A stretch of DNA of 64,000 nt from Candidatus Latescibacterota bacterium. GTDB taxonomy: Bacteria; Krumholzibacteriota; Krumholzibacteriia; WVZY01; JAKEHA01. A model generated the notes under the pieces. That model was not told the DNA's origin, did no database searches, and saw only the letters and a list, made by a program, of their open reading frames with translations. The position numbers and the translations under genes were made by a program. Shown here piece after piece: positions 53,927-59,572 of this stretch. Location of the stretch: assembly GCA_963707635.1 (NCBI GenBank), contig OY970173.1:672001-736000 (forward strand), written 5' to 3'. The stretch's first letter is position 1; every line of letters starts with the position of its first letter.

Positions 53927-54628
53927 ATGCGCAAGTACGGGTTCGCACTGGTCGTGTTCGCGTGTCTGGCCGGGAGTTCCTCGCGCGCCCGCGCGCAGGA
54001 GAGTTTCGGCTGGGATGGCGTCCTCTACGGAGGATGGAGTCATGCCCGGTTGAGCGGGAGCAGCCAGCCGTTCGAAAGCTCGGACGCGCGCGACGCAGGG
54101 ACCGGTGGGGTGGGGTTTGTCCTGCGGGTTGAGGACGAGTTCGGCATCGAATTCGGAATTCGCGCCACGCAGAAAGGCGCCTCGGGGGAAGTCGATCTCA
54201 CCGATTACACCGCGGACGTCAACACGTCGACGCCACGAATCCTCGGCGAAGGCACCACCGCGCTCACCTATCTCGAACTCCCGCTCACCTTCGCCGGCTA
54301 TATGAGCGCCGGTCAGAAGGCGTACCTGCGCGGTTATCTCGGCGTCTCGCCGAATTTCCTCCTGAAGGCGAACTTCACCGGCACTCTCGAAGGCAGCAGC
54401 GCCGACGTGGACATCAAGGACGCGCTCAAGGGGTTCGACTTCGCGTGGGTGATCGGAGCCAGCGCGACGCTCGACAAGACGAGCTACAGCCTGTGGCTGG
54501 ATGGGCGCTACGTGGGTGGGGTGCGCTCGATCGACAATTCCGGATCGGACTACGACGTGAAGACGAACGCGTTCGAAATGGCCCTGGGCGTGGGAATCCC
54601 GCTCGTGCGGGAAGTCGAAGCACAATGA
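53927..54628 (+). CDS. Outer-membrane beta-barrel protein (PorT/OMP_b-brl_2-like)
   Basis: Signal peptide, YLELPL motif, alternating beta strands. Confidence 0.7.
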   Translation: MRKYGFALVVFACLAGSSSRARAQESFGWDGVLYGGWSHARLSGSSQPFESSDARDAGTGGVGFVLRVEDEFGIEFGIRATQKGASGEVDLTDYTADVNTSTPRILGEGTTALTYLELPLTFAGYMSAGQKAYLRGYLGVSPNFLLKANFTGTLEGSSADVDIKDALKGFDFAWVIGASATLDKTSYSLWLDGRYVGGVRSIDNSGSDYDVKTNAFEMALGVGIPLVREVEAQ

Positions 54629-55200
54629 CGACACGCCGAGCGAAACCTCCCCGGGACAAGCTGGTCGAAGCCGCCCGCGGCTTTCTCGCCGCGCTCGAGG
54701 TCGACCCGGCCGGGCTCGAGGCGACGCCCGAGCGCGTCGCCGAGGCGTGGCGCGTGTTCACGCGCGGCTACGCGGGCAGTGCGCGCGACGTGTTCGCGGA
54801 GGGTGTGTTCGAAGAGACGCACGACGGCATGGTGCTGGTGCGGGACATCGACTTTTTCAGTGTGTGCGAGCACCATCTGGTCCCGTTCTACGGCCGTTGC
54901 CACGTGGCGTACCTCCCCGCGGGACGGATCGCGGGCTTGAGCAAGCTCTCGCGTCTGGTCGACCTCCATGCCCGGCGGCTGCAGGTGCAGGAACGAATGA
55001 CGCGCGACATCGCGCGCGACCTCCAGACCCACCTCAAGCCGCGCGGCGTCGCCGTGCAGGTCGAGGGCCGCCACCTGTGCATGGCGATGCGCGGGGTGGA
55101 GCAGCGCAACGCCGACGTGGTGACGACGAGTTTTCTGGGGTCGTTCCGATCCGACCCGGCCATGGCCATGGAGTTCCGGGCGGCGATCGCGCGCCGGTAG
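54625..55200 (+). CDS. folE: GTP cyclohydrolase I
   Basis: [37 protein letters not shown]. Confidence 0.95.
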
Positions 55201-55228
55201 CCACAACCAACGAAACGGAGAAGAGGCA

Positions 55229-55786
55229 ATGTCGATCAAGCCCGACAAGTGGATCGCGCGGATGGTCAAGGAATACCGGATGATCGAGCCGTACGTCGAT
55301 TCGCAGGTGAAGGACAACACGGTCTCCTTCGGGGTGTCGTCCTACGGCTACGACATCCGCATCGCGGACGAGTTCAAGATCTTCACCAACATCAACTCCA
55401 CCGTGGTGGATCCGAAAAACTTCGACCCGAGGTCGTTCTTCGACTTCAAGGGCGACATCTGCATCATTCCGCCCAACTCGTTCGCGCTCGGGCGCAGCGT
55501 CGAGTACTTCCGCATCCCGCGCAACGTGATGACGATCTGCGTGGGCAAGTCCACGTACGCCCGCTGCGGCATCATCACCAACGTGACCCCCTTCGAACCG
55601 GAGTGGGAGGGGTTCGTGACGCTGGAGATCTCGAACACGACGCCGCTGCCGGCGAAGATCTACGCCAATGAGGGCATCGCCCAGGTGCTCTTCTTCCAGA
55701 GCGACGAGGACTGCCTGATCTCGTACGGCGACAAGAAGGGCAAGTACCAGAAGCAGACCGGGATCACGCTGCCCAAGGTGCCGTAG
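55229..55786 (+). CDS. dcd: dCTP deaminase
   Basis: [30 protein letters not shown]. Confidence 0.95.
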
Positions 55787-55857
55787 GCGTGCGGCCCGGG
55801 GCCGGGCCCGGATCGGCCCGGGAAGCCCGACGCCGGGGGTCTCAGGCGATTTTGTGT

Positions 55858-55886
55858 TTGACAGCCCCCCGCCTTCCTGTTAGACC
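55858..55886 (+). promoter_or_regulatory. Sigma70 promoter of histone gene
   Basis: TTGACA-N17-TAGACC; 5'UTR hairpin at 55898-55915. Confidence 0.65.
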
Positions 55887-55954
55887 CACACCGTAACGAG
55901 GCTCTCTGGAGCCTCATTCTGGCAAAGGTTCACACTACTGGGAGGAACGTAGAA

Positions 55955-56152
55955 ATGGCAAAAGCTGCGAAGAAGGCTGCCGGTGCCGAGCTGATCATCT
56001 CCAAGTCTCGCACCAAGGCCGCCGCGAAGGGCTACAACGTGTCGGGCGACTTCTACGGCGCGCTCGACAAAGCGGTCCGTATGATCGTCAAGGAAGCGGG
56101 CGAGCGCGCCAAGGCGAACAAGCGCAAGACGCTCAAGCCCAGCGACATTTAG
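55955..56152 (+). CDS. Bacterial histone-fold protein
   Basis: 65 aa; LIISKSRTK...NVSGDFYGAL...ERAKANKRKTLKPSDI (RKT..D signature); GGGAGG RBS. Confidence 0.85.
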   Translation: MAKAAKKAAGAELIISKSRTKAAAKGYNVSGDFYGALDKAVRMIVKEAGERAKANKRKTLKPSDI

Positions 56153-56187
56153 TCGAATTGCCGGGTGACTGTCACCCGCGCGCCAGA

Positions 56188-56220
56188 GGGCCCGGCCTGC
56201 CGGCCGGGCCTTTTGTTTTC
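56188..56220 (+). terminator. Rho-independent terminator of histone gene
   Basis: GGCCCGGCC-TGCC-GGCCGGGCC-TTTTGTTTT. Confidence 0.8.
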
Positions 56221-56352
56221 ACACCGAACCGGACGCGGGCGGCGTTGGCGCCGTCCACGGGCCTCGCGGGCGCCCCCCGCGCCGATTACGCGCCTTGCGT
56301 CATCGGGAGCGGCGTGTTACCTTTGCTCAATTAACCCGGAGGATCTCCCGCG

Positions 56353-57816
56353 ATGCCCGATAAGATCATCGGGACAGGAATCACGTTCGACGACGTGCTC
56401 CTCGTGCCCGCCCGCTCCTCATTTCTGCCCGCAGATACCGACGTCTCCACGCGACTGACCAAGAAGATCCGGCTCAACATCCCGATCGTTTCCGCCGCCA
56501 TGGATACGGTGACCGAGGCGGGGTTTGCCATCGCGATGGCGCGCGCGGGCGGCATCGGCTTCGTGCACAAGAACATGACGCCCGAGCGCCAGGCCGAGCA
56601 CGTGGACATGGTGAAGCGAAGCGAGAGCGGCGTCATCTCCAGCCCGATCACCCTTGGGCCCGGGGCGCTGGTGCGCGACGCGCAGGCGCTCATGAAAAAG
56701 TACGGCGTCTCGGGGGTGCCGATCACCGACAAGAACGGCGTGCTGGTCGGGATTCTCACCGCGCGCGACCTGCGCTTCAACGAAGACGACACGCTTCTCA
56801 TTCGGGAAGTAATGACGTCGAAGGGACTGGTCACCGCACCGGTCGGCATCAAGATGGAAGAGGCCAAGCGGCTGCTGCACGAGCACCGCATCGAGAAGCT
56901 CCCGGTGGTCGATTCGAAGCAGCGCCTTCGCGGCCTGATCACGGTCAAGGACATCCAGAAGAAGCTGGATTTCCCGCTGGCGTGCAAGGACGCGCAGGGG
57001 CGTCTGCGGGTGGGCGCCGCGGTCGGCATCGGCAAGGACGCGCTGCACCGCGTGGATCTGCTGGTGGACGCGGGCGCCGACGTGATCGCCATCGACACGG
57101 CGCACGGGCACACCACCAACGTCATCGATACGCTCGCGCGGGTGAAGAAGCGCCACCGCTCGACTCCGGTGGTGGTGGGCAACGTCGCCACCGCGCAGGC
57201 CACCCGCGACCTGGCGAAGGCTGGCGCCGACGCGATCAAGGTCGGCATGGGTCCGGGCGCGATCTGCACGACACGCGTGGTCGCGGGAGCCGGGGTTCCG
57301 CAGGTCACCGCCATCATGAACTGCGCACCGGTCGCCGCCCAGGCCGGTATCCCGCTGATCGCCGACGGGGGCATCAAGTACAGCGGCGACATCGTCAAGG
57401 CGATCGCTGCCGGCGCCGACGTGGTGATGATCGGGAGCCTTTTCGCCGGCACCGACGAAACCCCAGGGGAAATCGTCCTCTACGAGGGTCGCAGCTTCAA
57501 ATCCTACCGGGGCATGGGGTCGATCGAAGCCATGAAGGAAGGCAGCAAGGACCGCTACGCGCAGGCGGACGTCGAGGAATCGAAACTCGTCGCCGAAGGG
57601 ATCGAAGGACGCGTGCCCTACAAGGGGCGCCTGGCGGATTCGATCTTCCAGCTGGTTGGCGGGCTCCGGTCCGGGCTCGGCTACTGCGGGGCGCGCACAG
57701 TAGGGGAACTCCAGGAACGCGGGCGCTTCATGCTGATTACCGCCGCCGGGTTGCGCGAGAGTCATCCGCACGACGTCATCATCACCAAGGAAGCCCCCAA
57801 CTACCGCTTGAGCTGA
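56353..57816 (+). CDS. guaB: IMP dehydrogenase
   Basis: [11 protein letters not shown] pair, [23 protein letters not shown]. Confidence 0.95.
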
Positions 57817-57818
57817 CG

Positions 57819-58730
57819 ATGCGCGCGAGCAACGAATCCGGCATGACGTGGCACGGTCAGATCAACCGGACCATCTGGGAGATCAACGAGGCGATCAAGA
57901 AGGCGCCCGACAATCCGCGCCTGCGCCGCGAGCTGCTGCGCGCGCAGTTTCTGCAGCACTTCGAGTTCGACAAGGCCTACCACGTTCCCCGGGACGATCG
58001 GACCTTCCTGTTTCTGCACGACGCCGACGCGCCGATCGTGCTGTTGCTGCACGGATCGCAGGGAACGCCGGCCGAGATGCGGGAGCTGGGCAACCATCTC
58101 CACTCCCGGGGGATTTCCGCGTACTGCCCGCGCTTCACGCGCACGAGCGGCAAGGACGAGCCGGTGTCGTGGGAGTCGTGGGTGACGCAGGCGCAGATCG
58201 CGCTGGAGAGCGTATGCACGTGCTCGCCGGCCGCGTTCGTGTGCGGCTTGAGCCTGGGCGGGACGGTCGCGCTGATCCTGGCGGAGCACGCGCCGCTGGC
58301 CGGGATGATACTGCTCGCGCCGGCGCTCTATCCGCGCATGGGTCTGAAGGCCCGTTGCCTGCAGCTGACCCGGGTGGTCACGCCCACCGTCTTCTATCAC
58401 TTCGCGGGCTGGACGGGCGAGGTCCTGAAGGCGATGGACCACGCGCGCAAGCAAACCCGTGAGCTCAAACTGCCCGTGCTGGCGCTGCAGTCGGCGGACG
58501 ACCGGCACCTGTCGCCGCGCGGACTCAAGTTCCTCCGCCGCCGTGGGGGCCACCCGGGCAGCGACTTCCGCCTGCTGGCGGAGGGTTCGCACGCGATCAT
58601 GCGCGGCGCCGCGAAGGCCGAGGTGTTCGAGGCGGTGTCCGGGTTCGTCGAGCGCAACGCGCGCGGGGTCAAGGTGGTGGCGGCGGTCCCCGACGCGCCG
58701 GCCGCGGAGTCTATATCTGATCCATCGTGA
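57819..58730 (+). CDS. Alpha/beta hydrolase (carboxylesterase-like) with N-terminal extension
   Basis: LLLHG, GLSLGG nucleophile elbow, SADD, SH. Confidence 0.8.
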   Translation: MRASNESGMTWHGQINRTIWEINEAIKKAPDNPRLRRELLRAQFLQHFEFDKAYHVPRDDRTFLFLHDADAPIVLLLHGSQGTPAEMRELGNHLHSRGISAYCPRFTRTSGKDEPVSWESWVTQAQIALESVCTCSPAAFVCGLSLGGTVALILAEHAPLAGMILLAPALYPRMGLKARCLQLTRVVTPTVFYHFAGWTGEVLKAMDHARKQTRELKLPVLALQSADDRHLSPRGLKFLRRRGGHPGSDFRLLAEGSHAIMRGAAKAEVFEAVSGFVERNARGVKVVAAVPDAPAAESISDPS

Positions 58731-59484
58731 AGCGGAACGATTCGTCGAGACGCTGAATCTTCTTCACCAGTTCGCGCAGTTTTTCCCTCAGCTCCGGGTC
58801 TTTCCCCTTCATGTACGACGAATAGAGGTCCAGGAACTCGTCCTGGAGGGCGCGCAGCTCGCGATCGGATTCGATGCGATCGATCGAGCGCTCCAGGTGA
58901 TACACGTCGCCCGACGATAGTCGCTCGAGGATGTTGAAGTACTCCCCGCGCATGTGGCTCAGGATCTGGACGTACTGCTCGAACCCGCGCGAGAGCTTCT
59001 CGAGAACCTCGCTGATGGCGGTCGCCTTGCGGAACATCGCCTGGCTGTACGAGTAGGCGAACTGGTAGTAGGCTTTCGCCCGCCCCACGTAGACCTCTTC
59101 GTTGTCCTTCATGAACGCATCCTTCGACCCCGGCCGCGAGACGTCCGGGTTGCGGAAGATGCCGATTGATATGAGCAGGAAGTCCGCGTTGGTCTTGTAG
59201 ATCGTGTACTTCAGGCGCACGTCCGGCGAATTGCGGATCTTCTCGAAGAGGTCGCTGTCATAGCGCGACAGGAACTTGCGGGTGCGCTCGTGGTAGTCCG
59301 GATTCATGAAGGACGTGAGCAGATTGGCGAGGTAGACGTTCACGTCCTCGTCGTAGTAGGTCTGGTTCGAGGGGTTTCCGGACTCGAGCCGGCTGTAGAG
59401 CAGACAGTTCATCATGAAGAAGAACGTCGGCTCGAGGTCGCGACCGCCGCCCGGCCCGATGGTGATATGGGTTCCGCCGTCCAT
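58711..59484 (-). CDS. Helical hypothetical protein
   Basis: Strong coding-like composition (VYLANLL...NADFLLISIGIF...GRAKAYY); sigma54 promoter upstream. Confidence 0.7.
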   Translation of the reverse strand: MDGGTHITIGPGGGRDLEPTFFFMMNCLLYSRLESGNPSNQTYYDEDVNVYLANLLTSFMNPDYHERTRKFLSRYDSDLFEKIRNSPDVRLKYTIYKTNADFLLISIGIFRNPDVSRPGSKDAFMKDNEEVYVGRAKAYYQFAYSYSQAMFRKATAISEVLEKLSRGFEQYVQILSHMRGEYFNILERLSSGDVYHLERSIDRIESDRELRALQDEFLDLYSSYMKGKDPELREKLRELVKKIQRLDESFRFTMDQI

Positions 59485-59572
59485 CTCGCGTCCGTTTTGT
59501 CTCCGTCGCTGTCGGTGTGCCGCGACCGATGAGTCCCACCGGTCCGCCGCGATTGCCGGCAGGGGCGAAATC

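Follow-up and report, generated by a model that had tools for sequence, protein, structure and literature searches.

Bacterial histones that belong to the face-to-face (FtF) class and carry tails were catalogued in 2024 (PMC11390915), and one bacterial FtF histone has been solved. HLp from Leptospira perolatii (PDB 9QT0-9QT2) wraps about 60 bp of DNA and introduces supercoils, and its residues R49, N53 and R55, which are conserved in FtF histones, build the tetramer interface (Hu 2025; PMC12701072). In the Thermococcus kodakarensis protein HTkC (PDB 9F2C) the interface arginine was reported to pair with the C-terminal carboxylate, and mutation of this arginine to result in dimer-like behavior (bioRxiv 10.64898/2025.12.06.692711). 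HBb, also termed Bd0055, from Bdellovibrio bacteriovorus (PDB 8CMP, 8FVX, 9EZZ; PMC10627809) is the type of the bacterial dimer histones, and according to Schwab 2024 an arginine and an asparagine at the interface between dimers tell FtF histones from this class (PMC11390915). The same source describes basic tails in most bacterial FtF histones. Archaeal FtF histones are described as mostly tail-less (PMC11390915; bioRxiv 10.64898/2025.12.06.692711), and bacterial singlet histones as mostly without long tails (PMC10627809).

The window analyzed here is a stretch of 64,000 nucleotides, in which dcd (55229-55786) and guaB (56353-57816), both recognized with Pfam, flank a histone gene. The following features were found at the gene:

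55858..55863, plus strand: -35 hexamer TTGACA with a T-rich tract in front of it; the exact hexamer is found upstream in 31/31 same-order loci.
55878..55886, plus strand: predicted extended -10, TG at -15/-14 followed by TAGACC, 17 nt past the -35; T at -12 and A at -11 present, T at -7 absent.
55898..55915, plus strand: leader inverted repeat with a 7-bp stem and a 4-nt loop; a genus-specific 5' RNA hairpin or DNA site.
55941..55945, plus strand: Shine-Dalgarno sequence GGAGG, 9 nt upstream of the ATG; 5-6 of 6 positions match AGGAGG in all 30 loci.
55955-56152, plus strand: histone open reading frame of 65 aa, N-terminus MAKAAKKAAG, C-terminus RKTLKPSDI.
55955..55987, plus strand: N-terminal tail, residues 1-11 (K3, K6, K7), predicted to be disordered.
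55988..56152, plus strand: alpha3-type histone fold, residues 12-65 and the stop codon, with the SK motif S16-K17, a 24-residue alpha2, the FtF residues R51 and N55, the clamp R57-K58-T59...D64 and a C-terminus one residue past D64.
56162..56178, plus strand: inverted repeat of two perfect 8-bp arms separated by 1 nt, past the stop codon and ahead of the terminator, sequence unconserved.
56189..56219, plus strand: intrinsic terminator-like stem-loop from a stem-loop scan, 9-bp GC stem, 4-nt loop and T run.

The encoded protein has a computed mass of 6.9 kDa and a pI of 10.25, which together with the reading frame and the C-terminal RKT..D bears out the preliminary description of a 65-aa basic stand-alone histone. 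An AlphaFold monomer, built from an alignment of 98 sequences that comprises the query plus 97 of the 120 homologs listed, had a mean pLDDT of 84, with helices at residues 17-23 and 31-54 and a single turn at 62-64. Residues 1-10 of the tail had a pLDDT of 46 and are predicted to be disordered. This model has a histone fold, as had been proposed from the sequence. Family profiles matched below threshold, with 17.6 bits for the Pfam histone family PF00808 (cut-off 21.4) and 17.8 bits for NCBIfam NF043032 (cut-off 50).

A sequence search of the PDB ranked HLp first (9QT0, E 2.5e-5), followed by HTkC (9F2C, E 7.4e-4) and HBb (E 0.066). The top match in Foldseek was also 9QT0 (TM 0.74/0.85, rmsd 1.7), although none of the matches was as good as E 0.001. 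In VIA the model aligned to HLp (9QT1) with Z 7.4 and an rmsd of 1.3 A over 55 residues; the Z scores for HLp (7.4), HBb (7.2) and HTkC (7.0) were tied. The top seven rows were all alpha3 histones (Z 6.9-7.4) and the remainder, nucleosomal histones included, reached at most 5.3. Because the scores for HLp, HBb and HTkC exceed those of the nucleosomal histones, the modeled 65-aa protein is an alpha3 histone, with a truncated alpha3 and a shortened alpha2. The relatedness to Leptospira histones pointed out earlier was also recovered, HLp being the closest solved relative both by sequence search and by structure comparison.

R51, N55 and R57 align without gaps to the interface residues of HLp. 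They are, like T59, D64 and S16-K17 (the SK motif with the alpha1 lysine), invariant in the 98 aligned sequences, among which 22 core columns do not vary. The pattern RxxxNxRKTxxxxD was present in 120/120 homologs listed (of 913 found), and in the same 120 the chain ends one residue after the clamp aspartate; here I65 follows D64. An end at this position is needed for the bridge from the arginine to the C-terminus described in the HTkC preprint. The RxTxxxxD clamp is present as R57-K-T59-LKPS-D64. By the R51/N55/R57 set, the clamp and the chain end, the protein likely belongs to the FtF class, which gives it the place among the prokaryotic histone classes that the preliminary description had sought.

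HLp resembles this histone in the alpha3 fold, length (63 vs 65 aa), SK motif, R/N/R tetramer residues, RD clamp, chain end and an N-terminus that is unresolved or disordered. The two share about 33% identity and differ in the Lys/Ala tail present here and in K58 of the RKT motif, which is a threonine in HLp. Two DNA-contact positions also differ, HLp K21 corresponding to A23 and HLp T27 to V29. HLp is flanked by smc and map, whereas the neighbors here are dcd and usually guaB. HU is reported to be absent in Leptospira (PMC12701072), whereas HU/IHF proteins are present here. HTkC is similar in fold (Z 7.0, rmsd 1.4 A, 54 residues), in the tetramer arginine and in its short alpha3, but has a histidine where the clamp aspartate stands here (bioRxiv 10.64898/2025.12.06.692711).

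Our main reading, which we hold at a probability of about 0.82, is that of a 65-residue alpha3 histone of the FtF class with a lysine tail, forming a tetramer ring around which about 60 bp of DNA would wrap non-specifically, and acting beside HU/IHF. A one-gene transcript likely starts at a sigma70-type promoter whose -35 is perfect and whose -10 is weakened. The small basic protein would dimerize via alpha2 and close into an FtF tetramer, in which, by comparison with HLp and HTkC, the dimers would join via alpha2, L2 and alpha3, with R51 reaching the opposite C-terminal carboxylate and N55 reaching R57. The ring tetramer and the wrapping of DNA are likely by analogy with the same two proteins. 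DNA would follow the rim of the tetramer through residues of the SK motif, L1 and L2, and the backbone contacts expected from HLp and HTkC are S16, K17, R19, G31, K56, T59 and K61. Four tails and four cores would provide eight basic surfaces that add affinity. From its composition, the tail would be a charge appendage that raises DNA affinity or touches neighboring DNA, and not a sequence-coded signal. The histone would share the packing of the chromosome with HU/IHF.

Close homologs among those listed are named Candidatus Krumholzibacteria, which makes this uncultured group the likely host. A histone match was found in 35 of 41 related genomes and, by profile search, in 125 of 181 genomes of the phylum. 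By family, matches were found in 17/20 genomes of f1, 12/12 of f2, 75/78 of f3, 4/5 of f4, 6/35 of f5, 1/11 of f6, 9/10 of f7, 0/1 of f8 and 0/8 of f9. Three of 16 other genomes of the same genus, which are 87-91% complete, gave no match. Nearly all genomes of the order carry the gene once. The genome that carries the window holds no convincing second histone: one profile match was obtained, plus a PF00808 match with E 0.5 in a frame of 875 aa. Relatives with 63-75% identity stand in records labeled Planctomycetota, Methylomirabilota, Eisenbacteria, Myxococcota and others (best 80 of 500). The dcd gene lies upstream in 31/31 loci of the same order (families f1 and f2) and in 0/4 loci of f4. 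The adjacency in all 31 loci indicates, on gene order, that the histone gene is resident and vertically inherited. In the literature searched no paper was found that joins Krumholzibacteria and histones, and the names Krumholzibacter, Latescibacter and Eisenbacter are absent from the text supplements of PMC11390915, where the genes may stand under accession numbers.

Some genomes deviated in copy number or type. A second, divergent histone was observed in family f7, where 8 of the 9 matching genomes have two matches. One of these second histones (L069; G040:C10:8700-9900) is 96 aa long. Its tail, of about 38 residues, is rich in Lys/Arg, its C-terminus continues past the clamp aspartate, and it occurs beside the tail-less ortholog. 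In family f5 a divergent tail-less histone of 58 aa (L068; G038:C8:71300-72500) keeps the R/N/RKT..D residues, has a full-consensus promoter and sits on a long branch; it is possibly a separate acquisition. Genome G032 carries two close histone copies (L029, G032:C403, and G032:C368). Two loci of one named record set (L135 and L150) have near-identical promoters, which suggests a recent duplication.

The TTGACA hexamer was found 79-135 nt upstream of the start used in all 31 same-order loci. A consensus promoter scan gave 0 promoters, since TAGACC, which stands 17 nt past TTGACA, is without the final T. The promoter proposed in the preliminary description stood with respect to the -35 (55858-55863, kept in 31/31) but not as a full-consensus promoter. 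With the -10 register set by the spacing after the -35, and the loci being kin and not independent, the 31 f1/f2 loci had A at -11 in 31, T at -12 in 30 and G at -14 in 27, while none had T at -7, the base found there being C in 18, G in 9 and A in 4. An alternative register was rejected, as no TAnnnT occurs at spacers of 14-21 in any of these loci.

The T at -7 is otherwise the norm. Among 354 TTGACA sites in the genome that carries the window, a TA followed at spacers 17 and 18 in 55 and 49 cases, compared to 2-16 at other spacers, and 45 of these 55 and 38 of these 49 sites had T at -7. Of its 189 intergenic TTGACA sites, 75 were followed by TAnnnT and 14, the histone gene among them, by TA without the last T; the latter number is at the off-register background of 7-17. 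TTGACA-N17-TAnnnT was enriched in 5/5 related genomes (89, 44, 44, 36 and 40 sites vs 13, 0, 7, 6 and 1 in controls), whereas the form without the last T was at control level (41, 7, 15, 10 and 8 vs 42, 5, 20, 15 and 9). The strong enrichment of TAnnnT rules out a lineage-wide loss of T at -7 as in alpha-proteobacteria.

Other families deviate at other bases. In f3 and f7, all 17 loci with TTGACA had T at -7 but lacked T at -12; this is a fairly common promoter class and hence weaker evidence of an anomaly. Both Ts were present in 4/4 f4 loci and in the divergent f5 locus, which speaks against a general rule. Outside the order 56 loci were examined from the best 80 of 500, with 24 Krumholzibacteria-order-looking records left out; 3 of them yielded no match, and in 22 TTGAC was absent from the 300 nt searched. 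Of the 31 loci with TTGAC(A/T), 3 had all three key bases. T at -12 was absent in 12/12 Planctomycetota loci and A at -11 in 3/4 Eisenbacteria loci. Three loci labeled Eisenbacteria (L090, L111 and L115) have a perfect TTGACA and a T-rich -10 region that lacks the near-universal A at -11 in the register chosen.

Promoters without T at -7 are known from Rhodobacter sphaeroides, where they are weak and activated by CarD (PMC7703639), and for wild-type rrnB P1 both CarD and negative supercoiling were required in vitro (PMC12976309). These promoters resemble the one described here in having a -10 without the final T (PMC7703639, PMC12976309), but in Rhodobacter they are the majority type and served by CarD, whereas here T at -7 is the norm and the order yielded no gene of CarD size. 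CarD was rejected as the activator: the PF02559 match present in 38 of 41 genomes sits in a frame of at least 679 aa, consistent with Mfd, and no CarD-sized PF02559 frame was found in the profile-searched genomes of the order. The only frame of that size (175 aa) is in genome G039, which has no histone match.

The conserved absence of T at -7 suggests a selected restraint of the histone promoter and points to selection on dosage. The codon bias of the histone gene is moderate, at the 72nd percentile of 2675 crudely called genes, compared to a median at the 93rd percentile (leave-one-out) for 32 ribosomal-protein and translation-factor genes. The high expression suggested in the preliminary description does not follow from a promoter without the final T of the -10. 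Nine public RNA runs contained only 5-9% of the words of 54600-57800, and contigs of four were examined. In run X1 a contig of 478 nt, about 95% alike, covers 55657-56134 at a depth of 50.7, compared to 3-5 for the contigs listed on folE and guaB. It was not counted as evidence, since it comes from a relative and extends upstream across the promoter as far as dcd, and since genes cannot be ranked by contig depth. Runs X2 and X3 had no cover over the histone gene.

HU/IHF-family matches were present in all 41 related genomes, with three in the genome that carries the window, so the histone need not be the main organizer, and its suggested role as a major chromatin protein is left with the analogy to L. 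interrogans. The histone could instead be a minor or condition-specific protein, kept low by the weakened -10 unless an activator is present, with HU/IHF doing most of the packing. We consider this unlikely, although it is the most probable of the alternatives. It agrees with the absence of T at -7 in 31/31 same-order loci, with the weakness of such promoters in Rhodobacter (PMC7703639), with one of the HU/IHF genes being at the 96th codon percentile compared to the 72nd for the histone, and with expression of FtF histones differing among organisms (PMC11390915). The perfect -35, the G at -14 and the strong Shine-Dalgarno sequence are nevertheless conserved, the core is highly conserved with its 22 invariant columns in 98 sequences, and the gene is kept as a single copy in nearly all genomes of the order. 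This alternative is about abundance alone and can coexist with the FtF mechanism. One of the three HU/IHF genes (G000:C1:1009059-1009352) has a TTGACA promoter of its own and contains an inserted stretch of several residues that the other two lack.

A more speculative idea, to which we give little credence, is that the histone gene tunes itself via DNA topology, the perfect -35 bringing in the polymerase and the -10 without T at -7 needing free negative supercoiling to open. Tetramers that wrap DNA would absorb supercoils and transcription of the gene would drop, a homeostat free of factors and without rescue by CarD that we regard as distinctly doubtful. On this idea, sister lineages would have arrived at a like design by losing T at -12 (f3/f7 and Planctomycetota) or A at -11 (Eisenbacteria). 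As rrnB P1 requires both factors, supercoiling alone may fall short (PMC12976309). For histones together with promoters, supercoiling or autoregulation in bacteria, the literature searched yielded, by title, only general reviews of nucleoid-associated proteins.

The 5' hairpin, ribosome binding site and terminator-like stem-loop noted in the preliminary description were all recovered. GGCT-N6-AGCC is present in the leader of 14/14 same-genus loci and 0/17 other same-order loci, and as the core arms are invariant there is no compensatory change. The repeat was rejected as a regulon operator, since it is not enriched in the genome (34 copies, 8 of them intergenic, vs 37-58 and 4-7 for other spacers). 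The motif CTCTGGAG has 65 copies in the genome, 13 of them intergenic. The -35 stands farther from the gene in the leader of locus L012 (G003:C217), where part of the hairpin sequence is duplicated in tandem. The repeat at 56162-56178 was absent at this sequence in the other ortholog loci viewed, several relatives carrying different short inverted repeats, and stem-loops of differing sequence were seen by eye after the stop codon in ortholog loci.

The preliminary description had taken short prokaryotic histones to be usually tail-less, an expectation that probably traces to the general statement on singlet histones in PMC10627809. Schwab 2024 says otherwise for bacterial FtF histones (PMC11390915), and a tail with at least two K/R was found in 120/120 homologs listed (of 913). 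The lysine tail is thus genuine but ordinary for the FtF class. The 120 homologs listed have 101 distinct tails, mostly of 7-19 aa and without a fixed motif, and KK occurs in 106 of the 120. In the same order the tail is 7-13 aa with 2-5 K/R (31/31 orthologs), and the 14/14 same-genus loci keep MAK(A/S)AKKA. All 35 loci of f1, f2 and f4 are tailed (7-16 aa, 2-5 K/R) and have a core net charge of +7 to +8, while the 18/18 fetched loci of f3 and f7 are tail-less, with 53-56 aa and a core charge of +1 to +6. The tail-less set comprises 14 f3 and 4 f7 loci, out of 75 and 9 matching genomes, with start codons picked by Shine-Dalgarno score; several f3 open frames have just 58-60 codons and leave no room for a tail. 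Conservation of the tail across orthologs therefore extends to charge, in the same order and in the 120 homologs listed, but not to sequence or length, nor to f3 and f7. In a tree of tail-trimmed cores (52 columns, long-branch outgroup) the 35 tailed rows group together with a support of 92/91, not starred. Tail presence and core charge covary, over few independent events, which fits a tail that adds DNA affinity.

New in this respect, next to the conserved promoter without T at -7, are the pairs of tailed (f1/f2/f4) and tail-less (f3/f7) orthologs in one phylum, which offer a natural comparison with and without a tail. These close orthologs are small enough for expression in E. coli, so that what the tail contributes to DNA affinity and compaction can be tested directly. 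In the literature searched no experimental test of the role of a bacterial histone tail was found.

It is very unlikely that the tail is regulatory in a eukaryote-like manner, with enzymes that acetylate or methylate K3, K6 and K7 at fixed positions and so control chromatin and transcription. The conserved MAK(A/S)AKKA of the genus and the frequent KK could be taken for such positions, and the genome encodes one HDAC-family protein and one sirtuin. However, deacetylase families are common in histone-free bacteria (HDAC in 9/14 and sirtuin in 10/14 control genomes), no SET-domain writer was matched in the genome, the 101 distinct tails share no fixed motif, and the sister families have no tail at all. 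Incidental acetylation is common on bacterial DNA-binding proteins and would not amount to a code.

That the protein acts like HBb/Bd0055, as a dimer that bends or coats DNA without a stable tetramer, is the least probable reading, since, despite the tied monomer fold scores for HBb and HLp and an RKT motif that dimer histones also carry (PMC11390915), R51 and N55, absent by definition in the dimer class, are invariant here, the chain stops at D64 + 1 whereas HBb chains run on, and the sequence is nearer HLp than HBb. HBb shares the alpha3 fold and the SK and RKT..D motifs with the protein, but lacks equivalents of R51 and N55, having S and D in these columns of the PDB sequence alignment; its C-terminus is longer, and its aligned chains show no Lys-rich tail. 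Two further classes were rejected. The pseudodimeric DUF1931 histones (PF09123) have two folds per chain over 138 positions, compared to a single fold in 65 aa here, and PF09123 had no match in the genome; the database name DUF1931, given to two relatives and to 9QT0, is a loose label. In archaeal nucleosomal histones of the HMf type alpha3 spans about 10 residues and alpha2 is long, whereas alpha3 is one turn here and NF043032 stayed below its cut-off.

Two observations were made downstream of guaB. An alpha/beta-hydrolase (Hydrolase_4) gene at 57813-58730 overlaps the guaB stop codon; about 70 aa at the N-terminus of its product precede the domain as an extension. On the minus strand, a frame of about 257 aa from an internal start (58711-59484, within the open reading frame 58711..59724) is rich in Tyr, Phe, Leu and Ser and overlaps the end of the hydrolase gene.
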